Shown: positions 1-33,320, counted from the stretch's first letter. The stretch is DNA of 33,473 nt from a bacterium (GCA_046757025.1 JBHHXN010000046.1:1-33473); one strand, 5' to 3'. Translations and numbers: made by a program. Notes: a model not told the origin generated them from the letters alone.

Positions 1-86
1 ATAGACAAGCCTACTCTGGAATTCCTTTTTGCGAATTTCGCTTTTCGGTTTGCGGTTTTTCGCTGCATTAGGATTTCTTCAATGTC

Positions 87-188
87 AATTTTTAGGAGTC
101 CTGATGGAGAGACCATCTCAATCATTTGAAATGCATCAGAACTCCTCAAAATTCAAAACCTTCCAGGTCTTGAAGATCTGGAAGGTTT
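87..188. repeat. Two adjacent stem-loops (REP-like / possible terminator) downstream of the large secreted protein gene
   Basis: Imperfect IR AATTTTTAGGAGTCCTGATG (87-106) / CATCAGAACTCCTCAAAATT (134-153). Hairpin AAACCTTCCAG (156-166) / CTGGAAGGTTT (178-188) lies 6 bp beyond the stop codon at 194. Confidence 0.6.
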
Positions 189-193
189 CAGAG

Positions 194-3100
194 CTACTTC
201 AACAGCAACATGCGCTTGGACATGATAAATTTGTCGCTGGCTTTCATCTGGAAAATATAGATACCTGAGGCGACCTGACGTCCAAACTGATCTTTCCCAT
301 CCCACTTTATCGAATAGATGCCCGCAGGCTGTTCTTTATCGACTAAGGTGATGATTTCCTGGCCCAGTACGTTGAATATTTTCAGCGTGACATTGGACAG
401 TTCAGAAAGCTGATATTTAATTTGTGTTTCTGGATTGAATGGGTTAGGATAATTCTGGAACAGATCGAAGTTATCGGGCGCGGTGCTAAGACTTTGACCG
501 TCTTCCACACTGGTGACGTTGTCCGTGGCCAGACTCATATTGACGCCGGAAGCATCCTGACCGTTGCCCACGCTTACGGCCGCTGCGTTGTCAGCATTGG
601 AACCGCCGTGGTAAGCATCAGCGTATCCCACACCTGTGGCTTCAATTTTATAGGTGCCGGCAGGCAGTCCCGAAAGAATATATTTTCCATCCGCATCGGT
701 GACGGCATTAAACTGTATTTCGTTATCCGCACGGGCTTGCACCAGAATGCCTTCAATGGGGGCGTTGGTTTCCTGCGACACTATTTGACCGCTGACGGCA
801 TAAATACCGTGTCCGCCTTTCGGAGCGAGACCAAAATCGATGCCATTGGTTACCACTCCAGCATGCACGAACACCGGATCGGCATTGCGGAACCGATGCG
901 CATCTTTGTAGAATTCGCCAATAAATCCATCGGCCCAGGCAAACACAAAATACTTTCCGGGCGGCAAATCTGTTAATTCATAATGTCCATGCGGCCCGGT
1001 AAAGGTAATGTACGGGAAACGAGTTCTTGGCGACACGGCTACAATCACTGCGCCTTCCAGCGGCGCATGGTCTTCATCAGAGAAAACCACGCCTGCAATG
1101 GTTCCTCGTTTCGGTATGAACCTGTTCAGAAAGAAATCGATGCTATCGGTTTCAGCAGGGGCGGTCACTGGCACCGGCGTGGCATTTTTTCTGCGATGAA
1201 CGTTGTTGTAATATTCCGGGAAATACCCCTTTGCGATAACCTGCACAATGTATTCCCCGGTTGGCAAGCCGCCAATTCGGTATTTGCCATCTTCGTGCGT
1301 GTAGGCGCGTCGATACAATCTCACATTCACACCCCAAACCTGCACCAGTGCTCGGGGGATTGGCATGCTGTCTCGTTCTGCCGCCACAAATCCTGAGATC
1401 GCCCCGCCAACTTCAAGTGTGAAGTTGATCTCTTCTACCACAGCGCCATCCTCAACGCCGACCATTTTTGCACCGTCTTTTGCGGGCGACTCCTCGAAAA
1501 ATTCCGGCAGATATCCTTCTGCCACCGCACGCACCAAATATTTGCCCGAAGGCACGTTTTCGATCAAATATTTTCCCGAAGAATCGGTTTTTGCACGATA
1601 ACCCACTAAACTGTTGGCCGCATCCAGTAACACGTTTTCCTTGAATGCTTCCACCAGAGCGCCGTAAATGGGTTCGCCGGTAACTTGATCCTTCACAACA
1701 CCGGTGATCGCACCGCGCGGGGTAAGCTCAAAATCGATACCTACCGTGTGCGAATCCGGAAATACGTGCACCATGGTGGCTTCTCGAAGATTGCGGGCAT
1801 CATCGTAAAATTCGCCGTTAAAACCTCGGGCAGAGGCGTAAACATAGTACGCACCCTGACGGATTTGTACGATGTATTCGCCGTTTTCATTGGTGCGGGT
1901 CTCGCGGTAAATTTTGTGATGGAATGCCAAAACCGGCCCGATAAATACGCGAATGCGCGCATTGGCGATAGGGGTGCCGTCCACGCTGTTTTTAACGACG
2001 CCCAGAATCGCACTGGAGGTGGCCAGCTCAAAATCCGTGCTGTCGCGTGTGGTACCTTCCACGATATTTAACAATTCAGCGTCTTCGAAGCGATGTGCAT
2101 CATCGTAATATTCACCTTTGTACCCTACCGCGTTGGCTTTCACGATGTACGTACCCTGCGGCAGACCGTCGATGATGTACGAGCCATCTTCTCCGGTTAG
2201 CGTATTGTGTGTAATTCGATGATTCACTCTTAGAAAGGCCACCACATGGGCATGCGGTAAAGGTAGGCTGTCTTCATCTGCGACCACGGTGCCGACGATT
2301 TTACCGCCTTCATTGAGCCCAAAGTTTTTATCCGTCAGGGAATCGCCTTCAGCAATTCTTAAAACCGTAGCTTCGGTATATTTCCGGGTGTTATCAAAAA
2401 ATTCACGGATATAACCTTCGGCTTTTGCGATCAAAACGTAGTCACCTGGAATCAACTCCTCAATGACATAATTGCCGTCGGCGTCGGTTTTGGCTTTACC
2501 CACCCAGTGAATCCGACCAAGCCGTATGGCTTTTATTTTAGCTCCTTCAAGTGGCAGACCACTGTCATCGTCCACTACGTTACCCGAGATGGCCCCCGAA
2601 GCCGGCGGACTGACAACGACTTTCGCTGCACCGCGAAAAGTCAGACCGTCGATTTGGACATACGCAACCACGCGCCCCTGACCCACTTCACTGCCAGCGG
2701 TAAACAATCCATCGTCCGTGATGGTGCCAAGATCATGTGGCCGCACTTCCCACCGGACACGCTCGGGCCGAACTTTTTTGTCACGGTAATTGTAAACGAC
2801 GACTTTAAATTGTTTATTTGTGTTAACGGGAACTACAGCAAAATCAGGTACGACTTTTACTCTAAAATGTGGTTTTGGCAAACGGCCAATGATAATGGTG
2901 ATGATTTTAACGAATTTACGATTTTTGATGAAAATGGTCGCCTCGATTTCGGCTTTTCCGATATATTTGCCAGCAACAAAATAACCGTCATCTGTAATGG
3001 TTCCAATTGAATCTGGTGCCATTCTCCATTTTACATCATCGATATCGATGGGCTTTTTAACCCCATCCATGGTAAAGGCAAATACTTCGAGCTGAATGCT

Positions 3101-3232
3101 GCCGCCGGGTTCGATTTCCACTTCATCCGGAGTTACGAGTACATCGATATCTTGCGCAAAGGCGGGTTGAAAGAATGCAGTGCATAAAATAAACACCATC
3201 AAGATGGTTTTAATTGATCTAAGTGTTATCAT
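194..3232 (-). CDS. Large secreted repeat protein: signal peptide, 2 Ig-like domains, 7 carboxypeptidase-regulatory-like (transthyretin/CnaB-like) repeats, C-terminal Por/T9SS type A sorting (FlgD-Ig-like) domain
   Basis: ATG at 3232 with GGAGG 7 nt upstream; signal peptide ending AFA-Q. Seven ~98-aa repeats G-x-I-x-G-x-V...P-[LI]-x-x-A...G-x-Y-x-[IL]-x-x-L-x-x-G-x-Y...EFY..A..A...DF-x-L. C-terminus FDLFQNYPNPFNPETQIKYQL...WDGKDQFGRQVASGIYIFQM...KRMLLLK. Confidence 0.9.
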   Translation of the reverse strand: MITLRSIKTILMVFILCTAFFQPAFAQDIDVLVTPDEVEIEPGGSIQLEVFAFTMDGVKKPIDIDDVKWRMAPDSIGTITDDGYFVAGKYIGKAEIEATIFIKNRKFVKIITIIIGRLPKPHFRVKVVPDFAVVPVNTNKQFKVVVYNYRDKKVRPERVRWEVRPHDLGTITDDGLFTAGSEVGQGRVVAYVQIDGLTFRGAAKVVVSPPASGAISGNVVDDDSGLPLEGAKIKAIRLGRIHWVGKAKTDADGNYVIEELIPGDYVLIAKAEGYIREFFDNTRKYTEATVLRIAEGDSLTDKNFGLNEGGKIVGTVVADEDSLPLPHAHVVAFLRVNHRITHNTLTGEDGSYIIDGLPQGTYIVKANAVGYKGEYYDDAHRFEDAELLNIVEGTTRDSTDFELATSSAILGVVKNSVDGTPIANARIRVFIGPVLAFHHKIYRETRTNENGEYIVQIRQGAYYVYASARGFNGEFYDDARNLREATMVHVFPDSHTVGIDFELTPRGAITGVVKDQVTGEPIYGALVEAFKENVLLDAANSLVGYRAKTDSSGKYLIENVPSGKYLVRAVAEGYLPEFFEESPAKDGAKMVGVEDGAVVEEINFTLEVGGAISGFVAAERDSMPIPRALVQVWGVNVRLYRRAYTHEDGKYRIGGLPTGEYIVQVIAKGYFPEYYNNVHRRKNATPVPVTAPAETDSIDFFLNRFIPKRGTIAGVVFSDEDHAPLEGAVIVAVSPRTRFPYITFTGPHGHYELTDLPPGKYFVFAWADGFIGEFYKDAHRFRNADPVFVHAGVVTNGIDFGLAPKGGHGIYAVSGQIVSQETNAPIEGILVQARADNEIQFNAVTDADGKYILSGLPAGTYKIEATGVGYADAYHGGSNADNAAAVSVGNGQDASGVNMSLATDNVTSVEDGQSLSTAPDNFDLFQNYPNPFNPETQIKYQLSELSNVTLKIFNVLGQEIITLVDKEQPAGIYSIKWDGKDQFGRQVASGIYIFQMKASDKFIMSKRMLLLK

Positions 3233-3305
3233 GTTCAAACCTCCATGAAAGCAATTCAAATTGTTGTTGATTTTCTGGTTAAATAAAATTACATTAATTA
3301 ATCTG

Positions 3306-3319
3306 AAGTAACGTTACTT
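3306..3319. promoter_or_regulatory. Perfect 14-bp palindrome, possible operator
   Basis: AAGTAACGTTACTT, ~75 bp upstream of the 3232 start codon; central AACGTT resembles LacI-family operators. Confidence 0.35.
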
Positions 3320-3358
3320 TCAACTGCCCAAATTTTACTACACAATATCATCTGACTC

Positions 3359-3459
3359 AGCCCCGTCTATTTCGAAACCATTCCATGGGCCTAAAAGGTT
3401 TCAATGCCAAGGGCGGGGCTTTTTGTTTAAGGTTATTTGTGGCAACTCACCTCCTTTCT
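3359..3459 (-). promoter_or_regulatory. Intercistronic structured RNA element with an orphan extended Shine-Dalgarno
   Basis: Minus strand AGAAAGGAGGTGA (3447-3459). Stem AGCCCCG (3359-3365)/CGGGGCT (3414-3420) with inner stem GAAACC (3374-3379)/GGTTTC (3397-3402). Confidence 0.5.
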
Positions 3460-3469
3460 TCATTTGTGA

Positions 3470-4990
3470 TCAATTTTTGGGTAACCCTTTTAAGCTTTTT
3501 CTTACCAATTCGAAGGCAACTTGAATGCCTTCTTCGGCAGCGCTCAGGTTGCCTTTTTGCAGGGCTTGCACCACGAATTGCCGAATCTCTTTCGCCCCCT
3601 CTAACATGCGTTGATTCCATTCCTGTCCGGATGCACTGATTCGTTTTTCTGCCTCGGTAATAGCCTGATCCAACTGACTTAAGCGCTGTTGAATTTTTCT
3701 CAGGGACACCGCTGTCGTTTCATGAGCATTTAAAAGTCTTTCTGCTCTGGAAAGAAATTTTTGAGCAGCCAAAACCGATTCCAGCGCGAAACGAACGTGT
3801 CCGGTTCTTGAAGCCTGTTCCGCTCTGGCAATGGCAAATTCAGCCATATTCAGCAGTACCAGGATATCTTTGGATACGTCGGCTGCCATCTGGCTTTTCA
3901 TTTCAGCCATATCGCTTTTTGCATTCTCGATTTCTTGAGCAATCCGTCTTGAAAGGCCGGGCCGGTCTTTATTTTCTGCCAATCTCCTCGCTTGTACAAT
4001 CATATTTTCAGCCAATTCAATTTTCCACATGGCTTCGTGCGCGTGGCCGTTTTTAGCCGCTAATTCGGCTTCGCTGGCGAATCGCCGGGCTCTTTCAAAT
4101 AATATTTTTGCTCTTTGATTGTCGGATTGTTGAATACCCTCTCGGGCACTATCAATATGTTCACGAAGCCGGAACAACGCCGCTTCCACGTGACTTACCG
4201 ATGCCGGTGTATCTCCCTTTGCAATATCCATCGCTCTCAATAACAATAAAACACTTTGATTGTAGAATTTTTTGGCCAATTGAAAATTGCCATTTCTAAC
4301 AGACTCTTCAGCCGAAATGGCCAATTTTATGGCTTGATCATAAATTTGTTTGGCACGAACATCCCGACTCTTTACGATGAGATCGTGTGCCCGATCCTTT
4401 AAAATCTCGAATTTTCGTTTTTCTTCTAAAATACGATCCAGGGTGGAAGAATTGGCCTTGTGTACCATGTCCAAAGCTTTATCTACCTGATTCAACGCAA
4501 CACGAAAAAGCTCAATGGCTTTGCGCACGTGCTGATTCGCCAGGGCTCTTTCTGCGGCATCGCGATTGGCTTTGGCCTGCCGCAGAATCCGTTCAGCTTC
4601 TTTGTACTGCCGCCCCTGAATCTCATGTTCAGCTTTGCGCAGTTTTTCTTCCAGACGGCTTCGCCATCTTCGCACCGGTCCGTCCAGTGTGATTTTGACA
4701 GCTTGCTCGAGTATGGAAAAGGCCACTTTAATTTTATTGCTGGCTACCCCAAATTTTTTGTTTTGAATTGCCTGAACTGCTTCGTTTCTCAACGTTTCCG
4801 CTCTTAAAACCAGATCCCAGGCTTTGGTATTTTTGAAAGTATGCACGATTTCCCTAACCAATTTCAGATCACGATCAAGCTTTTCAATGGCACGAACAAC
4901 TTCGTTGGGGGTTTGACTCCAGGAAAGGTCGGGAATGAGGAAGCTGCAAGCTATCAAAACAATGACAAATTTTGCTGACAATCTGAACAT
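3470..4990 (-). CDS. Exported all-alpha-helical repeat protein of unknown function (506 aa, six ~80-aa repeats)
   Basis: Long ORF, AGGA RBS, Sec-type signal peptide (MFRLSAKFVIVLIACSFLIPDLSWS-Q). Ala/Glu/Lys/Arg/Leu-rich, with recurring A-x-x-L-x-x-x-A...A-E-x-A-x-x-x-G-[HN]-x-x-x-A pattern. Confidence 0.85.
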   Translation of the reverse strand: MFRLSAKFVIVLIACSFLIPDLSWSQTPNEVVRAIEKLDRDLKLVREIVHTFKNTKAWDLVLRAETLRNEAVQAIQNKKFGVASNKIKVAFSILEQAVKITLDGPVRRWRSRLEEKLRKAEHEIQGRQYKEAERILRQAKANRDAAERALANQHVRKAIELFRVALNQVDKALDMVHKANSSTLDRILEEKRKFEILKDRAHDLIVKSRDVRAKQIYDQAIKLAISAEESVRNGNFQLAKKFYNQSVLLLLRAMDIAKGDTPASVSHVEAALFRLREHIDSAREGIQQSDNQRAKILFERARRFASEAELAAKNGHAHEAMWKIELAENMIVQARRLAENKDRPGLSRRIAQEIENAKSDMAEMKSQMAADVSKDILVLLNMAEFAIARAEQASRTGHVRFALESVLAAQKFLSRAERLLNAHETTAVSLRKIQQRLSQLDQAITEAEKRISASGQEWNQRMLEGAKEIRQFVVQALQKGNLSAAEEGIQVAFELVRKSLKGLPKN

Positions 4991-5034
4991 AACTCAATCC
5001 TATTTTAAAACGCGTTTTATTCAAACCGATTTTG

Positions 5035-5049
5035 GCAATCCCTGTGCCA
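5035..5049 (-). promoter_or_regulatory. sigma54 (RpoN) -24/-12 promoter
   Basis: Minus strand TGGCAC-AGGGA-TTGC, an exact match to TGGCAC-N5-TTGC, 45 bp upstream of the 4990 start codon and next to a sigma54 activator gene. Confidence 0.85.
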
Positions 5050-5157
5050 CACTTTTATTCATTGTTGCTTATTAAGTATTAGTTTCTGATATTTAATCAG
5101 TTAGGAATGTTTTATTTGATTCCAGAAAGGCAATTCAAGAAGCCGGCCTGATAATTT

Positions 5158-5197
5158 TGTACCGTAGAGTACAATTACAAATGTACACAACGGTACA
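5158..5197. promoter_or_regulatory. Tandem palindromic upstream activator sequences (bEBP binding sites)
   Basis: TGTAC-CGTAGA-GTACA (5158-5173) and TGTAC-ACAACG-GTACA (5182-5197): same 5-6-5 palindrome, 24-bp period, ~110-150 bp upstream of the sigma54 promoter with an AT-rich spacer between. Confidence 0.7.
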
Positions 5198-5291
5198 CTA
5201 TATCAAACATCGATTCGATTTTATTAATACTTGAATAAATAGAATGAAACTTGCATTTTCTCCTGAACGTGTTGGGGAGGGTAAGACACTG

Positions 5292-5364
5292 GGTGTTCAG
5301 GCTTTAGAGCCTGTGTGAAAAAGTGTTCTCGCCCCTCACTCCCACAAACTAAAGCTTGAACACC
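5292..5364. repeat. REP-like inverted pair interrupted by a MITE end
   Basis: GGTGTTCAGGCTTTAG (5292-5307) / CTAAAGCTTGAACACC (5349-5364). GAGCCTGTGTGAAAA (5307-5321) is identical to the terminal repeat of the MITE at 21469-21648. Confidence 0.6.
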
Positions 5365-5409
5365 GCCATTGCCACCATTGTGAATCGCACAATTTAAGCG
5401 AAAGTAAAA

Positions 5410-6759
5410 TTAAAACGCCCCCAATCTCTCCATCATAGAATAGAGTTTTCGGCGGGTGATCCCCAGCATTTTGGCGGCCTTGCTTTTGTTGCCGCCGGCT
5501 TTGGTCAAAGCGTTCTTTATCATGTTGATTTCCATCTGTTCCAGGGAGAGCCCTTCGTTGGGCAGTTCCATGGTGTCGCTGCTGGCGAAAGTGGGTGTTT
5601 GCCGGATGTGCGGCGGCAGATCTGCTTCTCGAATTACGTTGTCACTGGACATGATCAGCGCTCGTTCGATGATGTTTTCCAACTCGCGCACGTTGCCAGC
5701 CCAGTCGTATTTTATGATTCGTTCCAGAGCATTGCGTTCGATGGCTTCTTCGGTTTGACCAAATTTTTTAAGAAAATGTGTCACCAGCTCCGGGATGTCC
5801 TCTTTTCGCTCCCGCAGCGGCGGCAAAGTGATGGGAAATACGTTGATGCGGTAGTAAAGGTCTTCTCGAAATTGTCCGTTTTTCAGCGCCTCTTCTAAAT
5901 TGCGATTGGTGGCAGCAATGGTGCGGGCTTTTATCTGGATGGTTTTGGTTCCGCCCAGCCGCTCAATTTGCCGGTTTTGCAGCACACGCAAAAGTTTGAT
6001 TTGAGTCGATGGGGAAACCTCGCCTATTTCATCAAGAAAAATGGTGCCACCGCCGGCCAATTCAAACCGACCGGGTTTCATTTTATCGGCGCCGGTGAAC
6101 GCGCCTTTTTCGTGGCCAAATAGCTCGCTTTCCAGCAGGTTATCCGGCAAAGCGCCACAGTTTACTGCGATAAACGGTTCGGCAGCCCGGGGACTCAAAT
6201 TGTGAATGGCCAGCGCCACCAGCTCTTTTCCCGTGCCGCTCTCACCGCGTATCAAAACCGTGGCATCGGTTGGCGCCACTTTTTCGACCATTTTATAAAC
6301 TTCCTGCATAAGGCCGCTATTACCCACCATGTTTTCAAGCGAGTACTTGCTTTTGAGCTGCTTTTTAAGCAGCACGTTTTCCTCGGTTAGCTGTCGTTTC
6401 TCCATGATGTGCCGCACTTTCAGTTTCAGCTCATCCATCTCAAATGGCTTGATGATGTAATCATACGCTCCTTTTTTCATGGCCTCGACCGCGTTTTGCG
6501 CCGTAGCATAAGCGGTCATCATGATAACCTCGGTTTTGGGAGACTGCTTTTTGACTTTCTCCAAAACAAAAAGCCCGTCCTTACCCGGCATTTTCAAATC
6601 GGTGATCACCAAATCAAACGGCTGCGCGTTGAACCGCTCCAAGCCGGTTTCGGCATTTTCCGCGGTGGTGACTTTGTGACCGTCTGGTTCCAGAGCAAAT
6701 TTCAGAACTTTGCACATTTTCGGTTCATCATCGATGATCAGGATATTCCCTTTTAGCAT
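5410..6759 (-). CDS. sigma54-dependent two-component response regulator (NtrC/AtoC/ZraR family)
   Basis: REC domain (IIDDE, DLKMP), AAA+ Walker [15 protein letters not shown] loop, [18 protein letters not shown]-terminal Fis-type HTH ([18 protein letters not shown]). Confidence 0.95.
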
Positions 6760-6863
6760 AACAAATAACCCCGTTGTTGGATATTTTGGTATTTGTATAA
6801 TAATTTAATTTTATTCATCTGGAAATTCTAAATACCTTTAATGATTTCAAAATGAAAAGTATT

Positions 6864-6924
6864 AAATGCAAAGTGTAAAATTAATAAATCGAAGCGCTTT
6901 TGTATTTTACAACTCTTTGCATTT
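6864..6924. repeat. AT-rich imperfect inverted repeat between kinase and regulator genes
   Basis: AAATGCAAAGTGTAAAAT (6864-6881) / ATTTTACAACTCTTTGCATTT (6904-6924). Confidence 0.4.
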
Positions 6925-6968
6925 TTTATTTTAACCACACCAGATTTCGTTTGATTGTTTCCAAATGA

Positions 6969-8363
6969 TTACTCAACAGATGCCGGCAAATGAAAACGCA
7001 TGGTAGTGCCCTGTTTTTTTTTGCTTTCTACTTCGATCCAGCCCTGGTGTTTTTCGATGAGCCGTTTGCAAATGGCCAGTCCCAATCCGCTGCCGGAGGT
7101 TTTGGTGGTGAAAAACGGTTCAAATATTTGTTCTGGATCGCCTTCAAACCCGCAGCCGGTGTCCTGTACCGCCACCGCCACCAACGGCTTGCCTTTTTTG
7201 GTTTCGTTATGCAAGCGTATGCGCAATTCCCCGCCGCCATTCATGGACTGAATGGCGTTGAGGATGAGATTTAACATTACCTGCCCGACAGCGTCTTCGT
7301 CATGAATGACTTTCTCTAACGCTTCGGTTTCAAAAGACAATTTCACCTGAGCTTGTTTGATTTCTTCTTCCAGCGTGCTCAGGGTCTTTTCCACGGTTTT
7401 TTGCAGATCCGTGGCATTGGCTTCCAGTTCGCGGTCCCTGGCAAACGCCAAAAAGTCGCTCACCAGTCGATTCAAGCGGCGCACTTCACTGGGAATAAAT
7501 TCGAACAGCTCATCGGGTTCTTCTTTGGATTCGTACTTGGATTGCAGAACGTCGGCGGTGCTTTTGATGATGCCCAGCGGATTGCGAATTTCATGCGCCA
7601 CCGTCGCCGCCATTTGCCCCATGGCCGCCAACCGTTCGGTTTTGCGCAGCGATTCATTGGTTTTGATCAGCAATTGAATTGCCCAAAAAAGAAATACCGA
7701 AAACAAAACCGCCAGCGCCACGCTCACCAAACCGCCAAAAATCAAACCTCTCTGAAACACTCGCAGGAGATCAAAAAAATCGGCGCTTGCCTGCACCACC
7801 ACGATGGCCGCTACGTCGCCCAGCGAGCCAAACACCGGCGCATAGGCGTTTTTAAATCGATTGCCCGCCACGAGCTGCAGCGGCGCTGCTACCGCGATCC
7901 CGGACAGGGCTTGATCTAATGCGAGACTGTCCTCTTCCACAAAAGTCAATCGGTCGCCAAAGGTGAAAATGTCCGGGCTCGCCGCCAGGGTGCGGTAAAA
8001 TTTATCCACCAGATATACCCCCTGCAATTGATTGTCCTGGTGTACCTGCCGCAAATCGTGCTGTAACGAAGATAAAATAAACTCCAGATTGTCCGATTCC
8101 AGGTAGTACGAAAAATCTTTGGCCGCGATGATATTTGACGTTAAAGTCGCCACAGATCGCAAACGCGTTCCTAATTCTTTTTCTAAAAACAATTCCATGT
8201 TTTGCAGAAATTTCCAGCTTCCCAGGATAAATCCGAACAAAATCATCACCGTGAGCGCCACGATACCGATGACCATGACTTTACGCCGGCGCAGCAGTTT
8301 TTCATCCAGATTGGCCGGCGCTCCGGTTTGCTTTTTTATTTTTCGCCAAATATTTCCAGCCAC
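6969..8363 (-). CDS. Membrane sensor histidine kinase (2 TM, periplasmic sensor, HisKA, HATPase_c)
   Basis: H-box AHEIRNPL, N-box NLILNAIQSM, G1 DTGCG, F-box IFEPFFTTK, G2 GSGLGL; two hydrophobic helices flank a ~150-aa periplasmic domain. GTG start overlaps the upstream gene. Confidence 0.93.
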   Translation of the reverse strand: MAGNIWRKIKKQTGAPANLDEKLLRRRKVMVIGIVALTVMILFGFILGSWKFLQNMELFLEKELGTRLRSVATLTSNIIAAKDFSYYLESDNLEFILSSLQHDLRQVHQDNQLQGVYLVDKFYRTLAASPDIFTFGDRLTFVEEDSLALDQALSGIAVAAPLQLVAGNRFKNAYAPVFGSLGDVAAIVVVQASADFFDLLRVFQRGLIFGGLVSVALAVLFSVFLFWAIQLLIKTNESLRKTERLAAMGQMAATVAHEIRNPLGIIKSTADVLQSKYESKEEPDELFEFIPSEVRRLNRLVSDFLAFARDRELEANATDLQKTVEKTLSTLEEEIKQAQVKLSFETEALEKVIHDEDAVGQVMLNLILNAIQSMNGGGELRIRLHNETKKGKPLVAVAVQDTGCGFEGDPEQIFEPFFTTKTSGSGLGLAICKRLIEKHQGWIEVESKKKQGTTMRFHLPASVE

Positions 8364-8818
8364 TTGGCTAATTCCTCCTGAGAAAGTTCTTTATCGAACT
8401 TTTGATAAAATTCATCCTGAACAGATTTTTTCGACAAGCGGTCGTAGAAGTCCAGCGTTGAAATCACATGCGCCTGATGGGCTTTCGCGAATTGCTTGAT
8501 CTCAGCATCATCGCTGACCACCAGCACGCTTTTTTTCCTGGGCGCCTTGGCAATGAGATTTTTGATGAGCGGATCTGCTTTGAAAGGCGGTCGCGAAAAA
8601 ATCACCTTCAATGAACGAAAGTATGATTGAGAATCGATTCCTAGTGGCGGACTGCAACCGTCAAAAACCAGCGTGATTTTAACTTTTTTGTTGAGCAGAT
8701 AGGTTTTCAACTGCTGAATCAACGCCTCGCGTGCGGCTTCCAGACTTTCGGCCAGGTGCTGGCTGAGCCGCGGCACCCGGTGAATCAGGTTGTAGCCATC
8801 AATGATGATTTGGTCCAT
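8336..8818 (-). CDS. NYN-domain (YacP/Rae1-like, PIN fold) putative ribonuclease
   Basis: Motifs IIIDGYNLIH, LVFDG, ADPLI, VVSDD typical of NYN_YacP. Confidence 0.85.
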   Translation of the reverse strand: MDQIIIDGYNLIHRVPRLSQHLAESLEAAREALIQQLKTYLLNKKVKITLVFDGCSPPLGIDSQSYFRSLKVIFSRPPFKADPLIKNLIAKAPRKKSVLVVSDDAEIKQFAKAHQAHVISTLDFYDRLSKKSVQDEFYQKFDKELSQEELAKWLEIFGEK

Positions 8819-8825
8819 GACAAAC

Positions 8826-9638
8826 TTACTCCGTTAGTTTGCCGAGTTTGCCTTCGTAAATGAGAGCGACATTTCCCGTTAAAAGCAATCGCTTGTCCCG
8901 TGGATCGAGCGCCACCAGCAGGGTACCTCCGCGGGTCACAACTTCTGTGGGCAGCTTTGTGCGGCCGGCTAATTGCGCGAGAAAAGCCGAAGCCAGACAG
9001 CCGGTACCGCAGGAAAGAGTTTCTTCCTCCACTCCTCTTTCATAAGTTCGCAATTTGATTTTGGTGATCGAAACGATTTGCACGAAATTCACATTGGCGC
9101 CAGCCGGTTGAAATCTCACGTGCCGGCGATATTGTCTCCCTATTTTATTTACATCGACTTGTTCGAGATTCTCGCAAAACAAAACAAAGTGCGGCACGCC
9201 GGTGTTGACAAAACCGCCGTCCTCAAAACCGGCCTCTTCGACCACGTGCACGTCGATGTTCACCTCTCTGGCAGCTGACATTTTCAGTTTCACCGCCTGG
9301 TCGTTCACCTGTGCTGAATAAACTTCCCCGCCAACCGTGAACGTCATGTCGCTAGCTGCAATCCGGTGGTGAAAGGCAAAATGGGCAGCCGAACGAGCCC
9401 CGTTGCCGCAGGTGGCTTCGCTGCCATCGGCATTAAAATATCGCATGCGGAAGTCGTGTTCGGAGCTGTTTTCGATCAGCAGCACGCCATCGGCGCCCAC
9501 CGCTGTACGGCGCTGGCAAATCTCGCGAAAGAAATCCACCTCCTGTCCCGTAAAATGGCCGGCGCGATTATCGAACAGAATGAAATCGTTACCGGTGGCG
9601 GAATATTTATAAAAAGTGATTTCGGAAAGATCGCACAT
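8826..9638 (-). CDS. dapF: Diaminopimelate epimerase
   Basis: KYSATGNDF, GADG, NADGSEATCGNG, NTGVPH, NVNF, ERGVEEETLSCGTG (both catalytic cysteines present). Confidence 0.95.
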   Translation of the reverse strand: MCDLSEITFYKYSATGNDFILFDNRAGHFTGQEVDFFREICQRRTAVGADGVLLIENSSEHDFRMRYFNADGSEATCGNGARSAAHFAFHHRIAASDMTFTVGGEVYSAQVNDQAVKLKMSAAREVNIDVHVVEEAGFEDGGFVNTGVPHFVLFCENLEQVDVNKIGRQYRRHVRFQPAGANVNFVQIVSITKIKLRTYERGVEEETLSCGTGCLASAFLAQLAGRTKLPTEVVTRGGTLLVALDPRDKRLLLTGNVALIYEGKLGKLTE

Positions 9639-9669
9639 TTTCTAGGAACGGTTAAGTAAGACTAATTCG

Positions 9670-9698
9670 AATATACTAAAGCTGACTTCGAAAGTCAA
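9670..9698 (-). promoter_or_regulatory. sigma70-type promoter of the dapF-NYN-kinase unit
   Basis: Minus strand TTGACT-N17-TATATT, 32 bp upstream of the dapF start; palindrome TGACTT-CGA-AAGTCA overlaps the -35 box. Confidence 0.65.
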
Positions 9699-9854
9699 AA
9701 ATAAATTAGTTCAGCGAGTAACACCTCAGTTTTAGAGGGGCAAGCATTCGTTTGGGCAGTCCAAAAAGTCCTCAAATACACACAACTTCAAGCTGAGTCC
9801 CGAAGTAAATTTGGGAAAGTATGTCTGTTTTTAATCAACTTATAACACTCTTCG

Positions 9855-10075
9855 TACGGCTATCCAGTTAGCTCAGAAACGGGGTTATTACTGAATTCAG
9901 TATTTAAAAGAATGCTATAGTCAGTCATTCCCGCGAAAGCGGGAATCCATTTAGAAACAAAGATTTGAGGCGGTCGAAACCTCTGGATGCCCGCCTTCGC
10001 GGGCATGACGATTAAGGTTTATATCAATCGAAAAGAGCTTTTATAAGTTCAAGCTGAGTTAACTGGATAACCGTA
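9855..10075. mobile_element. Inner MITE with 22-bp TIRs and 9-bp target-site duplication
   Basis: TACGGCTATCCAGTTAGCTCAG (9855-9876) / CTGAGTTAACTGGATAACCGTA (10054-10075). Flanking direct repeats CACTCTTCG (9846-9854) and CACCCTTCG (10076-10084). Confidence 0.7.
9924..10009. repeat. REP doublet of the GTCATTCCCGCGAAAGCGGGAATCCA (dRS3/RPE-like) type
   Basis: GTCATTCCCGCGAAAGCGGGAATCCA (9924-9949) and inverted copy TGGATGCCCGCCTTCGCGGGCATGAC (9984-10009). Confidence 0.8.
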
Positions 10076-10192
10076 CACCCTTCGACGCAGTCTATTCTGA
10101 TCTTGTCGAAGGACTCAGGGTGAAGAAACACGACTTTTTAGACAGCCCCAACAAGATCAATGGACTCCCCTCTGCGTTAGTGAGGTTTTGGT

Positions 10193-10942
10193 TCAGCGAT
10201 AATCCCGCTCCCAGGAGCCGTAAGTGGGATTGGGCAGCATGAAAAATTTTGTTCCCCAGCGCTCGTCCCCGGGCAGCTCTTTCGTACGGTATTTTTTTGC
10301 TTTTTCGGCGCCCACCACTTCCATAAAATCACGAATGTTGTCTCCCAGCAGAGCGACGATCACCAGCGGGCCATTTTTTTTGCAGCGGCCCGTACCGGCT
10401 TCCAGGCAACGGCGGCGATCAGATTTTTTGTCCTGGCGATTTTTGCGGGTGAGCATGGTATCCCCCGGCTTGAATAAACCGTATTTTTGGAGATTTTCGA
10501 TGGTGGCCTGCTCATGCTCAAAATTGCGGTTGGTAATGTACGCAATGTGCGCATTCGGACCCAGACTGCGTACCCCGTCGATAAATTCTTTGGCTCCTGG
10601 CACCAGCATGGCTTCCTTGCGGAAAACCCATTCTGCCCAGGATTGCGGGGTGAAACCCGAATCGATTTTGGTTCGTTCCACCGCATATTGTGAATTATCG
10701 AGCACGGTTTCATCCACATCCAAAACCACCACCCAGTTATTAGTTTGCGTCTGCGCGGCTTGCTGCACTGCCTGCCAGGCGCTGCGGTAGGTCTGCGTGC
10801 ACAATGCCGCGTATTCAACGGATGAAGTCACCCACTTGATGTCGTTGCGGAGCTGGGCATAAGCCGGCAAAACTCCCAACGCATAAACGACAAACATGAC
10901 AACGAAACATTTCACTACATAAACCAATTTGTTCTCTTTCAC
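10193..10942 (-). CDS. Class C acid phosphatase / 5'-nucleotidase e(P4) family (HAD superfamily IIIB), secreted
   Basis: VLDVDETVLDNSQY, ITNR, LGDNIRDF, LPNPTYGSW motifs; signal peptide ending AYA-Q. Start taken as GTG at 10942 after GGAGG; the ORF track extends to 10987. Confidence 0.9.
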   Translation of the reverse strand: MKENKLVYVVKCFVVMFVVYALGVLPAYAQLRNDIKWVTSSVEYAALCTQTYRSAWQAVQQAAQTQTNNWVVVLDVDETVLDNSQYAVERTKIDSGFTPQSWAEWVFRKEAMLVPGAKEFIDGVRSLGPNAHIAYITNRNFEHEQATIENLQKYGLFKPGDTMLTRKNRQDKKSDRRRCLEAGTGRCKKNGPLVIVALLGDNIRDFMEVVGAEKAKKYRTKELPGDERWGTKFFMLPNPTYGSWERDYR

Positions 10943-11001
10943 AGTCTCCTCCATTGCATGAGATTTACTCATTCTAATCTGATTCAATTTTTATTGGAAG
11001 G

Positions 11002-11030
11002 AAAGTAAACAGAAATGGCAAAAATCTCAA
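11002..11030 (-). promoter_or_regulatory. Putative sigma70-type promoter of the acid phosphatase gene
   Basis: Minus strand TTGAGA-N17-TACTTT. Confidence 0.4.
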
Positions 11031-11063
11031 GTTAAATTTACGCCACTACCTCATCCTGCTAAA

Positions 11064-11219
11064 GCGTGTCTGAACTAAAACGACCCTGTCTTCTCGAAGG
11101 GCGCCTGGCTGAGGGTGAAATCCTGCTCAGCTCGGCGGAGTCTGTCCTGAGCTTTGTCGAAGGGACGCCTTCGCAAAAGAGCATGTCTATCGCGCATTTT
11201 CGAGTTTTCGGAGGGACAC
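11064..11219. mobile_element. MITE, family 'GAGTGTCTGAAC...GGACAC', 4-bp TSD TAAA
   Basis: Ends GCGTGTCTGAACTAAAACGAC and TTTTCGGAGGGACAC; TAAA at 11060-11063 and 11220-11223; internal REP-like CTGTCCTGAGCTTTGTCGAAGGG. Related copies at 17865, 20284-20410 and 33438. Confidence 0.7.
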
Positions 11220-11420
11220 TAAATAAGCATTCATCCACGATTGTGGTTCAGGGAGATTTTATTTGGATGTCGCGTGCGGTCTGCTAAAAAATCTTTTCCA
11301 AAATGACATCAAAGGGTATGTAACGGAACTCTTGCCTGAAAGTGATTATTTTCCCTTGCATATTAATTTTCAACTCTATATTTTGTTTCCTTTAAAATAT
11401 ATCCCCAACAAAAAGTTTCC

Positions 11421-11948
11421 ATGAAAAAACTCGTTCACTACATCGATTTGTTAAACGAGAAAGTCGGCTACAGCGTCTCGTGGTTGACCACCGCGTTGGT
11501 GGTGCTGGTGTGCTATGATGTCTTCACCCGCTACTTACTCAAAAAAAGCAGCATCGCGGTACAGGAGTTGGAATGGCATTTATTCGCGATTATTTTTTTA
11601 TTAGGAGCGGCTTACACGTTGAAACACGACCGGCACGTACGGGTGGATGTGCTCTATCTGAAATTCTCACCCAAAATACAAGCTTGGATCAACTTTTTTG
11701 GCAGCTTGGTATTTTTAATTCCTTTCTCGATTCTGGCCATTTACACCTCAAAAAATTTTGTACTGAATTCCTTTTTGATCAATGAAACCTCACCCGACCC
11801 GGGGGGACTGCCTGCACGCTTTATCATCAAAGTCTGTATTCCTTTAGGATTTTTTCTTTTATTTTTACAAGGCGTTGCACTGGCCAGTAAATCCTTAACA
11901 ACCGCCCTGAATAAAGACCGGACTAACGTGGAGACCATAGATGGCTGA
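11421..11948 (+). CDS. dctQ: TRAP transporter small permease subunit
   Basis: Four TM helices, ELEWHLF, HVRVDVLY, PDPGGLP; overlaps the dctM start. Confidence 0.93.
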   Translation: MKKLVHYIDLLNEKVGYSVSWLTTALVVLVCYDVFTRYLLKKSSIAVQELEWHLFAIIFLLGAAYTLKHDRHVRVDVLYLKFSPKIQAWINFFGSLVFLIPFSILAIYTSKNFVLNSFLINETSPDPGGLPARFIIKVCIPLGFFLLFLQGVALASKSLTTALNKDRTNVETIDG

Positions 11949-29332: not shown

Positions 29333-31843
29333 ATGATCTCTAACCAAAATACACCGGCTGCGCCAAAATTTCTTCTGTGCTTATTTTTTGTAAGTCTCAT
29401 CAGTTTGCAGCCAGGCTGCAGTCAAATCGAAACTTTTTTTGACCCGCGGTCCGGCCCCTTTCCATTTACATTTCAGAAAATTCAGGACGCCACTCACCAG
29501 GACCGTTATATCGATTTTGATCACGACGGCCGTGACGAATGCATGCGGGTGATAAACGAGCGCGACCCCCGTATCACTCCCAGCCGAATTCAAATATTGG
29601 ACCACGAGTTCACCTTTATCGAAGAAGTCAATTTCAATGGACAGCTTACAAAAATTGCCGCATTCGACTGGAGCAATAACGGTGTCGATGACATTTGCGC
29701 GACTTATACTCGTCAGGACACTTCGTTTTTACGAATCATCGACTACCAGGGTAAAATAATTCAAGATGACGTGCCCCTATTCATCGGCAAAGCCCGCAAC
29801 GACAGCAGCGGCGCCTACAAATGGGAAGGACACATCTCTCAGATTTTATATTCCGATTTGGAAGACGACGGCTGCCCGGAATTGATTCTCTTTCCTTCCG
29901 AAGGATACGCTCAGAAACCACGCGGCGTCTATGTGTATGATGCGAAATCATTCAAATTAAAATGGCATTACGATGTCGGCCCGGCCTTGAATCAACCTGC
30001 CATTTTCGATTTTGACCGGGATGGCAAAATGGAAATTCTCCTTTCCACCAAAGCGCCCAAAAACGGTAATCGCGCCAACGGCACAACCGATGAAAATGCG
30101 CATTTATTTCTTTTCAATAGCGCTGGGGACACTTTGTGGACGCGGTCGTATATCGATAGCTATTCCAATGTTGAAGCCCGAATCGAAGACCTCGAGGCCG
30201 ATGGTGAATATGAAATCATCGCTTTATTATATGACTCATTTTTCAGAGGCTTTTCGCCCAGAATAGAGATCATTCAACCGCAAACCGGACAGCTTATGCA
30301 ATCCAGAAATTTGCCGGGTATTTTTGGCAGCTTTACAACGGCACGAAGGGATCACAAGACCAATAAAGAAATTCTCTACGCCAGCTCTGAAGGGATTTTG
30401 ATTTCCATAAATAACCAGTTGCAAGAAACACTAAAAAAGGAATTTAAATTCAATATATCAAAAGTAGTTAGTTGTGAAGATTTGGATGGCGACGGATTGA
30501 ATGAGATTGTGCTAACAACGAACGACGGCTCCGCATGGCTGGAAAATCAGCTCAATATTAAAGCAAAATATGCATCCGTACGATTTATTAGGCAGAGAAT
30601 TCAAACTTATCATCGTCGCAATAAGAAGCCGCTCATTTTATTGCAGAGCGGTGAAAGCAGTGCGCTGTTTTCCCTTGAAAAAAATAACCATTATCTTCTG
30701 TCCTTTTACGCTCCTTTTGTGGCAGTCCTTTTTAGCGGGGCTTTTCTGATCTTGCTTTTCATCAATAATGTACGCTACTACCGCCAGCGCCGTAACTCCA
30801 GACAACTTTTTGAACTGCTGTCTTCACTGCAACACGATCCGCTTTTATTGCTCAACCGCAACCATCAGGTAATGTCTGCAAATAGCAACGCGCGGCAACT
30901 GCTGCAATGTAACGGCAAAAAGCTTCCCCTTGAAATCGCTGCACTCGATATCAACGGCGAGCTGAAAGCCGCGTTATCGGAGCTGCCAAACAATCCGCCG
31001 GTTCGTTTCGAAAGGGAGGTTCAATTCCAGGCTTCTGCCAGCCACAAGGTACGCCTGCTGGCCGAGCCCATCAAATTGGCATCATCAAGTTATCAGTGGT
31101 TGGTTCTCTTGCAAAACGATCACACCAAAGAGGAGAGGGAAAAAGCAAAAACCTGGTCCGCCATGGCACAGCGCATCGCCCACGACATCAACAATCCGCT
31201 CACCAGCATTCAGCTCACCCTGCAGCGTTTGCAAATGGAATACCGCGATCAAGAAAGCCAGAAGGTCTTGAAATACGAACAATTTACCAACAAAATCATG
31301 GAGCGCATTGAGTCGTTGCGCCGCATGAACCGCGGCTTCATGAAATTTCTCAACCTTGAAAAACTCAATCTCCAGTCCACAGAAATCAATCAATTTATAG
31401 AAAATTTGTTCAAAAATAAAATCATCGAATTGCCGCAGGACATTCAATTGCAGAAAAAATTCAATCCCGATTTACCCGCCACCAATCTGGATCAGGAGCA
31501 AGTACAAAACCTGCTGGAAAATTTAATTGCCAACGCCATCAACGCCATGCCGGACGGCGGCACGCTTTCCATCAGCACCAGTCTGGCATCGGATTTGCAA
31601 TTTGATGAGCCTGATTCCCAGCCGCGTGATTACTGCATAATCGAAGTCATGGACACCGGCGTGGGTGTGCCGGCCGATATTCGGGAGAAACTCTTTCAGC
31701 CGTTCACCTCGCGGTCGCATACCGGCACGGGATTGGGACTCACCATCGTCAAAAAAATAGTAGATGATCACCAGGGAAAGATTGAATTCCATAGCGAAGA
31801 AGGGGTGGGCAGTTCGTTTGAGGTGTATCTGCCGGTTGCATAA
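29333..31843 (+). CDS. Sensor histidine kinase with extracytoplasmic FG-GAP/VCBS-like repeat domain, TM helix, PAS-like region, HisKA and HATPase_c
   Basis: DFDHDG, DWSNNG, DLEDDG, DFDRDG, DLEADG, DLDGDG motifs; TM near aa 460-480; AHDINNPL, NLIANAINAM, DTGVG, FQPF, GTGLGL. Confidence 0.92.
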   Translation: MISNQNTPAAPKFLLCLFFVSLISLQPGCSQIETFFDPRSGPFPFTFQKIQDATHQDRYIDFDHDGRDECMRVINERDPRITPSRIQILDHEFTFIEEVNFNGQLTKIAAFDWSNNGVDDICATYTRQDTSFLRIIDYQGKIIQDDVPLFIGKARNDSSGAYKWEGHISQILYSDLEDDGCPELILFPSEGYAQKPRGVYVYDAKSFKLKWHYDVGPALNQPAIFDFDRDGKMEILLSTKAPKNGNRANGTTDENAHLFLFNSAGDTLWTRSYIDSYSNVEARIEDLEADGEYEIIALLYDSFFRGFSPRIEIIQPQTGQLMQSRNLPGIFGSFTTARRDHKTNKEILYASSEGILISINNQLQETLKKEFKFNISKVVSCEDLDGDGLNEIVLTTNDGSAWLENQLNIKAKYASVRFIRQRIQTYHRRNKKPLILLQSGESSALFSLEKNNHYLLSFYAPFVAVLFSGAFLILLFINNVRYYRQRRNSRQLFELLSSLQHDPLLLLNRNHQVMSANSNARQLLQCNGKKLPLEIAALDINGELKAALSELPNNPPVRFEREVQFQASASHKVRLLAEPIKLASSSYQWLVLLQNDHTKEEREKAKTWSAMAQRIAHDINNPLTSIQLTLQRLQMEYRDQESQKVLKYEQFTNKIMERIESLRRMNRGFMKFLNLEKLNLQSTEINQFIENLFKNKIIELPQDIQLQKKFNPDLPATNLDQEQVQNLLENLIANAINAMPDGGTLSISTSLASDLQFDEPDSQPRDYCIIEVMDTGVGVPADIREKLFQPFTSRSHTGTGLGLTIVKKIVDDHQGKIEFHSEEGVGSSFEVYLPVA

Positions 31844-31937
31844 ATGCAACATAGTTGCAACGGGTAACTCTGAAGCCGATGGCTAACTTGATTTTAATAA
31901 AATTAAAAAATGAATTTGCTTTTGGATATCACTCTGC
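31835..31937 (+). promoter_or_regulatory. Overlapping palindromes and a weak sigma54-like -24/-12 element upstream of the response regulator
   Basis: GTTGCA-TAAA-TGCAAC-ATA-GTTGCA (31835-31859); TGGATATCACTCTGC (31923-31937) keeps GG-N10-GC spacing. Confidence 0.35.
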
Positions 31938-31958
31938 GACAAAAATTACTCTCTTAAA

Positions 31959-33320
31959 ATGAAATTACACGCGAAAATTTTAATTGTCGATGACGATGCT
32001 TCGGTCCGCGAAAGTCTCAATGAAATTTTGAGCTACCACAATTATGATTGCATGGAAGCCGCAGACGGTAAGGAGGCGCTGCAAAAATTAGAGGAGACTC
32101 ACGTCGATCTCATGCTGCTCGATTTGCGCCTGCCGCGCATCGACGGCATGGAAGCGCTGAAACATAGTCTTTGCAATTATCCAGAAATACCCGTGGTTAT
32201 GATCAGCGGGCAGGGTACCATCGCACTGGCGGTGGAAGCCACCAAACTGGGCGCTTACGATTTTCTGGAAAAGCCCCTGGAAGCGGAGCGCACCCTGCTC
32301 ACCATCCACAATGCCCTGGAAAAAAGTCGCCTCAAAATGCAGCGGGATCAATTGCTGACCGAAACCCGGCAGCGCTACCAGATGATCGGCAGCGATCCCA
32401 ATATGCAGGAGGTTTTTGCGCTCATCGACCGCGCCGCCACAGTCAACAGCAAGGTTCTGATTTCGGGCGAAGCCGGCACCGGTAAAGAATTGGTGGCCCG
32501 CGCCATTCATAACAATGGTCACCGAGCCGGAAATCCTTTCGTGCCGGTAAATTGTTCAGCCATTCCCGAATCTTTAATTGAAAGCGAGTTGTTTGGTTAC
32601 GTAAAGGGTGCATTTACTGGCGCCACGAGCGACCGGTCTGGTAAATTTCAGCGCGCGCACCAGGGTACGCTTTTCCTGGATGAAATCGGCGACATGAGTC
32701 TGATGATGCAGGCAAAAATTCTGCGCGTGCTCGAAGATGGCTGTGTTGAGCCGGTGGGCAGTTCGAAATCCATGCTCGTGGACGTTCGAATTATCGCCGC
32801 CACCAACAGATCGCTCCCCAATGAGATCGAAGAAGGCAACTTTCGCAGCGATCTATTTTACCGCCTTAACGTCATTTCCATCGAGCTGCCGCCGTTGCGC
32901 TTGCGTAAAAACGACATTCGGCCATTATCGGAACACATTCTGGAAGAGGTTTGTACGGCTCAAGGACTGGCGCAAATGACGTTCGCAAACGGCGTTTGGC
33001 CGCTGCTAACCAAATACGATTGGCCGGGCAATGTGCGAGAGCTGCGCAACGTCATCGAACGGGCGGCGGTGCTGACTCCGAACAACACCATCGAAGCGGC
33101 TGCTCTGGCAGAAGCGCTGCAGAGCAAGCTCTCCCCCACTCAATCAAGTGACGTCCAGCAGACTTTGCGCCAGGCGCGCGCGGAGTTCGAACGCGATTTC
33201 ATCCTCGCTACCCTTGCCGCGCAAAACGGCAAAATCCAGGAAACTGCTCATGCACTGGGCATTCAGCGCAGCCATTTGTGGAAGAAGATGAAGCGGTATG
33301 GAATCAGCGCGAATAAATGA
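31959..33320 (+). CDS. sigma54-dependent response regulator (NtrC/NtrX family)
   Basis: REC (IVDDD, DLRLP), GEAGTGKE, GAFTGA, FLDEIGD, WPGNVRELRN, Fis-type HTH (TAHALGIQRSHLWKKM). Confidence 0.95.
   Translation: MKLHAKILIVDDDASVRESLNEILSYHNYDCMEAADGKEALQKLEETHVDLMLLDLRLPRIDGMEALKHSLCNYPEIPVVMISGQGTIALAVEATKLGAYDFLEKPLEAERTLLTIHNALEKSRLKMQRDQLLTETRQRYQMIGSDPNMQEVFALIDRAATVNSKVLISGEAGTGKELVARAIHNNGHRAGNPFVPVNCSAIPESLIESELFGYVKGAFTGATSDRSGKFQRAHQGTLFLDEIGDMSLMMQAKILRVLEDGCVEPVGSSKSMLVDVRIIAATNRSLPNEIEEGNFRSDLFYRLNVISIELPPLRLRKNDIRPLSEHILEEVCTAQGLAQMTFANGVWPLLTKYDWPGNVRELRNVIERAAVLTPNNTIEAAALAEALQSKLSPTQSSDVQQTLRQARAEFERDFILATLAAQNGKIQETAHALGIQRSHLWKKMKRYGISANK

Follow-up and report, generated by a model that had tools for sequence, protein, structure and literature searches.

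The window considered here is a 33,473-nucleotide stretch of bacterial DNA (GCA_046757025.1 JBHHXN010000046.1:1-33473) that makes up the entire contig C46 of an assembly of 5.96 Mb with a completeness of 94.8%. Its source organism can be placed in KSB1 (Zhuqueibacterota), because KSB1 records carry the same gene behind the same motif; this phylum is described in the accessible text of PMC11683472 as having no cultured members. On the minus strand of the window, the genes of a sensor histidine kinase and of an activator of sigma54-dependent transcription are followed by a pair of palindromes, a -24/-12 promoter and the genes of a helical exported protein (the rod) and of a repeat protein with a sorting domain. 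Regulation through sigma54 by the adjacent kinase and activator is well supported by comparison of related loci, with the binding of the activator being a prediction. The reading put forward here is that this two-component module switches on an envelope operon in which the rod serves as the periplasmic partner of the kinase and links it to a predicted outer-membrane barrel; taken as a whole, it has about an even chance of being correct. The module itself is real and conserved, and it works like ZraSR-ZraP, QseEGF and PrsKRT but scores below the membership cut-off of each; it is apparently undescribed.

Enhancer and promoter of the helical gene

The tandem palindromes before the helical gene are not a chance occurrence. 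Both copies of TGTAC-N6-GTACA, the distal at 5182..5197 and the proximal at 5158..5173, are predicted activator sites, and the sigma54 promoter TGGCAC-AGGGA-TTGC (5035..5049, minus strand) has its predicted start near 5023. Perfect palindromes of this kind occur four times in the 5.96-Mb genome and those with other gap lengths zero to four times each, so that a single site is at chance level. Two of the four stand 24 base pairs (bp) apart at the window locus, an arrangement of which about 1e-5 are expected, and this pair precedes one of the 27 strict -24/-12 sites of the genome. Under a matrix trained on relatives only, the window tandem is the top site genome-wide (56.0 vs. 39.4 for the next). 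The next-best sites are weaker and lie before a WXXGXW gene (contig C11) and a lipoprotein gene (contig C86). The lipoprotein gene at C86:12011-13072 stands behind one perfect palindrome, and its homologue in an Eisenbacteria record (L239) behind a related tandem.

The spacer between enhancer and promoter (70% A+T) contains a site at 5079..5091 (minus strand) with one mismatch to the consensus of integration host factor (IHF), WATCAR-N4-TTR, and two genes of the HU/IHF family are present in the genome. Predicted sigma70-like promoters are at chance level (14 vs. 12.6), the hairpin between the rod and repeat genes is non-significant (z -0.11), and no Rfam match was found in window positions 1-11500. 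No RNA run is listed for the stretch, which counts neither way. An earlier sequence-only reading of this DNA had named the kinase, the activator, the palindromes, the promoter and the two exported proteins; every one of these elements was found at its assigned position, all features lying on the minus strand. It cited, as established, that such activators bind tandem palindromes about 100-150 bp upstream of -24/-12 promoters. As a small correction, the centres of the palindromes are some 142 bp and 166 bp from the predicted start at 5023, on its upstream side.

Conservation of the enhancer and its other targets

The phylum panel comprised 167 genomes, from which 80 loci of the helical gene were fetched, stronger matches on longer contigs being preferred. 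A tandem was counted when two sites with at most 2 mismatches each stood 20-33 bp apart and at most 650 bp from the gene start. By this definition, a tandem was found upstream of the helical gene in 61 of the 80 loci and only eight times in the remaining 1.13 Mb, the reversed pattern giving 0 and 1, respectively. Five of the eight off-site tandems head a rearranged operon with a lipoprotein gene and/or the repeat gene first. A stricter pattern was found in 31 of 67 genomes (control, 1); a looser one occurred in at least 87 of the 167 but also gave many control matches, and the counts are based on the stricter patterns instead. Downstream of the tandem, a -24/-12 site with no more than one mismatch was found in 55 of 62 loci including the window, mostly 90-125 bp away. 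IHF-like sites were present in 31 of the 55 spacers (shuffled mean 13.1, maximum 19).

The tandem accompanies the head of the operon where the genes are rearranged or split. Separated genes with a site of their own include those of the barrel (L180, L181, L184, L185), the repeat protein (L175) and a lipoprotein of family F10 (L158, L159). Among the fetched KSB1 regions, many of which are cut short, the repeat gene was seen in 62 of 80, the gene of the ~550-aa barrel in 40 and the kinase or activator in only 25. The proposal of a sigma54 regulon governed by the adjacent kinase and activator is borne out by the conserved enhancer, promoter and gene linkage. The module is self-contained only in part, since the operon likely continues on another contig, further targets lie elsewhere and the regulators are so often missing from the fetched neighbourhoods.

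A species-wide scan for promoter plus tandem in 185,579 species genomes gave 97 stretches, of which 80 were fetched. Among the 33 best-scoring of these, 25 precede the helical gene, five precede targets also found in KSB1, two are planctomycete loci adjoining an activator with the same recognition helix, and one is unexplained. Low-scoring matches, glnK-type loci among them, were assigned to other activators. A further 40 tandem sites were fetched that had been selected as lying outside the 80 helical-gene loci. Downstream of the sites listed are the gene of the 550-aa protein (4 sites), that of lipoprotein F10 (2), the repeat and helical genes (1 each), genes of WXXGXW proteins (4, probably 5) and of one family of small secreted proteins that has no Pfam match (5), DUF1800/DUF1501 genes (1) and a Flp pilin promoter (2), as well as several proteins with only a sorting domain in common. 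About ten of the 40 have no convincing promoter and may be due to chance. No site was found upstream of the DUF1800/DUF1501 genes of the window genome.

Several of these loci deserve a separate record. In two KSB1 genomes a strong tandem with a promoter heads a Flp pilin/tad-like region (L150:4043-4276 and L151). In the Planctomycetota loci L207 and L258 a kinase and same-helix activator drive a low-complexity secreted protein and a tetratricopeptide repeat (TPR) protein in place of the rod. Related palindrome pairs with a -24/-12 site adjoin an activator in Acidobacteriota (L193, L217, L221, L232, L254, L262, L264), mostly upstream of a small secreted protein; the activator helix is RRTLQYR where read, and this might be another undescribed sigma54 module. 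In L199, L214, L225 and L235, mostly (T/C)GTCC-N6-GGAC(A/G) tandems precede genes resembling efflux or ABC permease components, two of the four loci having a neighbouring activator with a different helix.

Kinase and activator

The kinase (464 aa; 6969..8363, minus strand) has HisKA and HATPase domains with the H-box at His257. Two membrane segments, seen as hydrophobic stretches near residues 27-53 and 205-235, flank a periplasmic Cache-like domain of about 150 aa, for which a weak sCache_3 match was found in 9 of 37 orthologous sensor regions. Matches to the kinase were present in 116 of the 167 genomes, 106 of them strong. A YacP-like NYN gene at 8336-8818 overlaps the start of the kinase gene and, wherever the kinase was seen in KSB1 (16 loci, rearranged ones among them), adjoins it.

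The activator (449 aa; 5410..6759, minus strand) shows the features of group I (receiver-type) enhancer-binding proteins: a receiver, an AAA+ domain with Walker A/B and GAFTGA at 219, and a Fis-type helix-turn-helix (HTH). It lies above no named NCBIfam cut-off among the 25 listed. Its recognition helix, GITRRKLYS, is absent from the other 43 activator-like matches of the genome, a few of which end before the helix, and is found in activators of 19 of the 80 helical-gene loci. The window activator and its 18 orthologues form a single 19-member clade (support 0.987), and the helix tracks the motif, including its variants in planctomycetes and in two other phyla. The genome also contains rpoN, which the sequence-only reading presupposed. 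The adjacent activator is the likely reader of the tandem palindromes.

It is highly improbable that some other, NifA- or VnfA-like activator reads the palindromes and that the adjacent two-component pair is a bystander. The site does satisfy the NifA sequence TGT-N10-ACA and the proposed VnfA sequence GTAC-N6-GTAC (accessible text of PMC7294313), and the other 43 activator-like genes offer candidates. Against this, the window activator is of the receiver type, is accompanied by a kinase and scores below the NifA cut-off (401 vs. 528.85 bits), and no nifH was found above cut-off in the genome, as compared with two controls that were above it. Moreover, all 24 short loci from two other phyla have an activator of the same type directly upstream, and it also occurs in two planctomycetes, in which other genes follow the motif. 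The likeness to NifA and VnfA sites is likely a convergence of HTH specificity.

The helical protein, a predicted rod

The helical protein (506 aa; 3470..4990, minus strand) has a signal-peptide-like N-terminus and is predicted to be a periplasmic rod of six tandem three-helix bundles. In the AlphaFold2 model the six bundles have a predicted local distance difference test score of 93 and a predicted template modelling score (pTM) of 0.52. The six repeats are pairwise homologous (hhalign probability 97.4-99.3). The protein is basic, with an isoelectric point (pI) of 9.9 and a median of 9.4, and matches to it were found in 103 of the 167 genomes. A Foldseek search with the rod gave no match at E up to 0.001, and the solved structures retrieved by sequence were mostly designed helical and TPR proteins. 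In structure, the three-helix bundle of a rod repeat resembles generic bundles, among them DUF4398 (PA2901; Z 11.5, root-mean-square deviation 1.7, 73 aligned) and with the spectrin-like rods of Borrelia BB0323 and EzrA (Z 10.6 and 10.1). Matches between helical bundles become meaningful at a Z of about 13, which none of these natural proteins reaches, and one rod repeat scores 18.8 bits with the DUF4398 profile (Pfam cut-off 27.9); any kinship with the rod is putative.

The resemblance to ZraP pointed out in the sequence-only reading is reduced to an analogy, since the rod has no LTXXQ or Metal_resist match in Pfam at E up to 0.01, where the same models detected a neighbour in L040, and since its size and predicted fold differ. 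This bears on the suggestion that the same regulation serves a generic envelope-stress response, with the rod as a stand-alone holdase in a Spy/ZraP-like role and the barrel and the repeat protein as unconnected outputs. Such a response appears unlikely. It would suit the basic character of the rod, which is that of periplasmic holdases, and the neighbours and co-targets of the module, which include a LiaF-TM protein, an LTXXQ/Metal_resist protein, DUF1800/DUF1501 and WXXGXW proteins. ZraP itself doubles as a chaperone and a repressor of ZraSR, according to the title of a reference in PMC6737893. A stand-alone holdase would nevertheless leave unexplained the fixed order of rod, lipoprotein (where present) and barrel in three phyla and the barrel's fusion with a bundle of the rod type, and the rod itself gives no LTXXQ match.

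Probable continuation of the operon and the predicted barrel

The contig end, downstream of the repeat gene, is formed by an interspersed repeat of about 80 bp (1..81), copies of which occur on more than 25 contigs, many of them at contig ends; it is the probable cause of the assembly break. Another palindromic repeat lies at about 156-190. Contig C1 opens with the gene of a ~550-aa barrel protein and a LiaF-like gene (C1:3-2432), and the same order is found in relatives. As C46 ends in the interspersed repeat and these two genes open C1, the operon probably continues there past the contig end; no sequence overlap joining the two contigs was found. In relatives, the operon is frequently followed by selA (24 of 81 loci) and by a serB-like gene (8), which is probably plain synteny (e.g. 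L112:2781-5425).

The ~550-aa protein is predicted to be an outer-membrane barrel: its model combines an N-terminal three-helix bundle with a 20-stranded barrel that ends in Phe and has no plug. No Pfam match was found for this protein, and fold searches returned only generic large barrels. A TonB-dependent receptor was considered and rejected, the model having 20 strands instead of 22, no plug and template modelling scores of at most 0.47 to solved receptors. The N-terminal bundle matches rod repeats 6, 4 and 1 with probabilities of 95, 91 and 90, the other repeats being weak. Among the barrel's look-alikes in the Atlas are BBP2_2 and SlipAM clusters, which are to be taken as leads.

Helical scaffolds combined with barrels serve as conduits in AlgK-AlgE, PelB, BcsC and Slam. 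Under the same regulation, the rod and barrel could likewise form an export or assembly conduit by which the repeat protein, a lipoprotein or some polymer reaches the surface, with no feedback on the kinase, and this is considered rather unlikely. What speaks for a conduit is the helical scaffold adjoining a plug-less barrel, the BBP2_2 and SlipAM look-alikes, the co-inheritance of repeat protein and barrel, the opposite charge of the basic rod and the acidic repeat protein (median pI 9.4 vs. 5.05), and a similar cluster of activator, helical protein, barrel and repeat protein on contig C134. The repeat protein, however, has a sorting domain of its own for the system of type IX secretion (T9SS), and the genome carries SprA and PorV-like genes as well as 150 or more such cargoes. 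In two other phyla no conserved cargo or polysaccharide gene family stands beside the module, and the rod stays with the kinase where barrel and repeat protein were not found.

The C134 cluster (C134:2145-10299, L114) consists of a sigma54 activator, a 338-aa helical secreted protein, a 359-aa barrel, a lipoprotein and a paralogue of the repeat protein. Its barrel gives a weak match to the barrel profile (E 5.5e-6), and a -24/-12 site precedes its lipoprotein. The helical protein was not called a paralogue of the rod, as it did not match the rod profile.

Gene linkage within KSB1 and in two other phyla

Co-occurrence was counted over the 167 genomes after weak matches had been dropped (rod 3, kinase 10, repeat protein 9). 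The rod was found in 100 genomes, the kinase in 106, the repeat protein in 79 and the barrel in 84, with all four in 66. The rod pairs best with the kinase (both in 91 genomes, phi 0.70), which fits a feedback partner. The repeat protein pairs best with the barrel (75 genomes with both, 4 and 9 with one alone, phi 0.85). The roles proposed in the sequence-only reading, chaperone or feedback partner for the rod and surface scaffold or adhesin for the repeat protein, are putative.

Outside KSB1, the rod profile was matched in 79 of the 101 genomes sampled from the phylum of genome G167, for which Atlas look-alikes point to Krumholzibacteriota, and in 4 of 7 of the phylum of G171 (a Zixibacteria SM23_81 record). 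All 24 short loci of these phyla have the activator on the same strand, directly upstream, together with a -24/-12-like site, and a downstream match to the barrel-family profile was found in 21. All 16 longer loci have the order kinase, activator, rod, barrel, with no orthologue of the repeat protein. The barrels of these phyla match the KSB1 barrel with a profile probability of 99.6 over 394 columns. Of 33 distinct genomes, 13 were found to have the gene of a small lipoprotein at the locus (19 loci out of 42, duplicates included); in the loci inspected it stands between rod and barrel. The lipoprotein matches the N-terminal bundle of the KSB1 barrel (95.6) and rod repeat 6 (94.7).

On profile comparison, then, the small lipoprotein of the other phyla is fused to the barrel in KSB1. 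Judged from gene order, the deepest conserved unit consists of kinase, activator, rod and barrel, not of rod and repeat protein. The helical and repeat proteins, earlier taken for a pair, are such only within KSB1. Even there, 20 genomes have the rod and the kinase, a search finding neither the repeat protein nor the barrel, and the two other phyla lack the repeat protein beside rod and barrel.

Proposed mechanism and points against it

The mechanism would begin with the Cache-like sensor, identified from the domain composition, responding to an envelope cue and phosphorylating the receiver of the activator. The LiaF-like, LTXXQ and DUF1800/1501 neighbours give a hint that envelope stress is the signal. 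Activator dimers would then occupy the two TGTAC-N6-GTACA sites, IHF would bend the spacer, and the sigma54 polymerase would open the promoter at about 5023; the motifs and their conservation are observed, and binding would follow the known behaviour of such activators. The resulting transcript would encode the rod, the T9SS-type repeat protein (in KSB1), the barrel and the LiaF-like membrane protein, provided that the operon is joined across the break. These steps, from sensing to transcription, are very probable.

In the following step, the barrel's bundle, which is of the rod repeat type and is replaced by the separate lipoprotein elsewhere, would dock to the rod, so that the two would bridge the periplasm and act back on the kinase. 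This part is argued by analogy and is evenly poised between right and wrong. That kinase, rod, bundle and barrel are invariably linked, and that the bundle has been fused, points to a physical chain across the periplasm, and a role in signalling or feedback is favoured by the rod's stronger tie to the kinase. Finally, the repeat protein would be exported by a T9SS-like translocon and would depend on the barrel, for example for anchoring, as their co-inheritance suggests.

A number of points weigh against the rod as a link between kinase and barrel. The genomes counted are kin and partly incomplete assemblies, so that the co-occurrence figures are descriptive and the samples non-independent; the kinase occurs without a rod match in 15 genomes and the rod without the kinase in 9, many of these assemblies being incomplete. 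In the 20 KSB1 genomes just mentioned, rod and kinase are present with no barrel detected by the KSB1 profile, so that the rod is able to persist where a barrel is not detectable. Of the 24 short loci in the two other phyla, only 14 reach a tandem score of 15, and the tree does not place the activators of these phyla firmly in the KSB1 clade (support 0.32). The matches of the bundle profile to rod repeats 2 and 5 are weak (32-61), and helical-bundle matches of about 95% may reflect generic amphipathic patterns. The overall geometry of the modelled rod is uncertain, given its pTM of 0.52. Furthermore, the rod is induced by the system and is not co-transcribed with the kinase as QseG is.

An extension of the preferred reading, in which the rod is the partner of the kinase, can be offered tentatively, as a possibility that falls well short of even. 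The plug-less 20-strand barrel would itself sense at the surface and signal through the bundle and the spectrin-like rod to the Cache kinase, whose activator would induce more rod and barrel. If true, this would be a new trans-envelope signalling machine, conserved in three or more uncultured phyla, that parallels TonB-dependent cell-surface signalling but works through sigma54, with the T9SS-exported repeat protein of KSB1 as the surface antenna of the barrel.

Relation to known systems

In QseE/QseG/QseF (GlrK/YfhG/GlrR) of Enterobacteriaceae, as here, a sigma54 activator with upstream sites governs envelope-related targets (accessible text of PMC6075780). QseG, its accessory protein, binds and activates QseE across the periplasm and bridges the outer membrane to the kinase, according to the accessible part of PMC12691602, and the rod is the candidate counterpart. 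The window activator is far below the GlrR cut-off (366.8 vs. 763 bits), and the accessory of QseEGF is a lipoprotein encoded between kinase and regulator, in contrast to the regulated six-bundle rod plus barrel of the present module. ZraSR-ZraP is likewise a sigma54 two-component system that drives a helical exported protein from an adjacent promoter (available text of PMC6737893). Here the window proteins score below the cut-offs of ZraR (421 vs. 760) and ZraS (200 vs. 479), the operon adds a barrel and a T9SS-type protein, and the rod has 506 aa.

The PEP-CTERM system PrsK/PrsR/PrsT, found through phylogenetic profiling, combines a kinase, a sigma54 activator and a helical protein with a -24/-12 site and a repeated enhancer ahead of sorted surface proteins, as given in the accessible part of PMC1569441. 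The window activator lies below the PrsR cut-off (431.6 vs. 502.6 bits), and the tail of the cargo is of the T9SS type (TIGR04183), not PEP-CTERM.

TonB-dependent cell-surface signalling of the FecA-FecR-FecI type employs an induced barrel with an N-terminal periplasmic domain. An induced outer-membrane barrel whose N-terminal periplasmic domain could relay a signal inward would be common to both. The barrel predicted here has 20 strands and no plug, and the output is a kinase and a sigma54 activator, not a sigma factor of the extracytoplasmic function type.

The sequence-only reading had called the module undescribed and envelope-directed, and this apparently holds: no listed publication dealt with this system, and none was found on KSB1 sigma54 or on KSB1 type IX secretion, in a search that reached few subscription papers. 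Uncultured phyla for which no regulon was found in print are given a regulator together with its binding motif, promoter and list of targets. Three unnamed families (rod, small lipoprotein and barrel) are joined in one testable unit. If the rod and barrel relay to the kinase, this would be a new route for a surface signal across the periplasm. All parts can be expressed in E. coli, so that regulation and contacts are open to testing without culture.

The repeat protein and type IX secretion

The repeat protein (1012 aa; 194..3232, minus strand) consists of two Ig-like domains, seven CarboxypepD_reg-like beta-sandwiches and a T9SS type A sorting domain. Its reading frame starts at ATG behind GGAGG, and the N-terminal segment looks signal-like by eye. 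The sorting domain scores 35.5 bits with TIGR04183 (cut-off 23) and 25.9 with Pfam Por_Secre_tail, just below 27. The protein is acidic (pI 5.3; median 5.05), and domain profile searches found no catalytic domain in it. A strong tandem site accompanies just one of the genome's T9SS cargoes, which number at least 150.

SprA was found above cut-off on contig C139, together with 19 PorV-like matches in the genome, the best at 237 vs. a cut-off of 250 bits. The GldM profile gave no match in the window genome, and control genomes gave none either. The module would offer a regulated T9SS-type cargo in a lineage where a search for the GldM motor found none. The presence of SprA, PorV-like genes and sorting-domain proteins with no GldM found might also indicate a motor-less or divergent T9SS. 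At the other end of the window, a second pair of kinase and sigma54 activator lies at 29333-33320, its kinase having a sensor that resembles an FG-GAP propeller.

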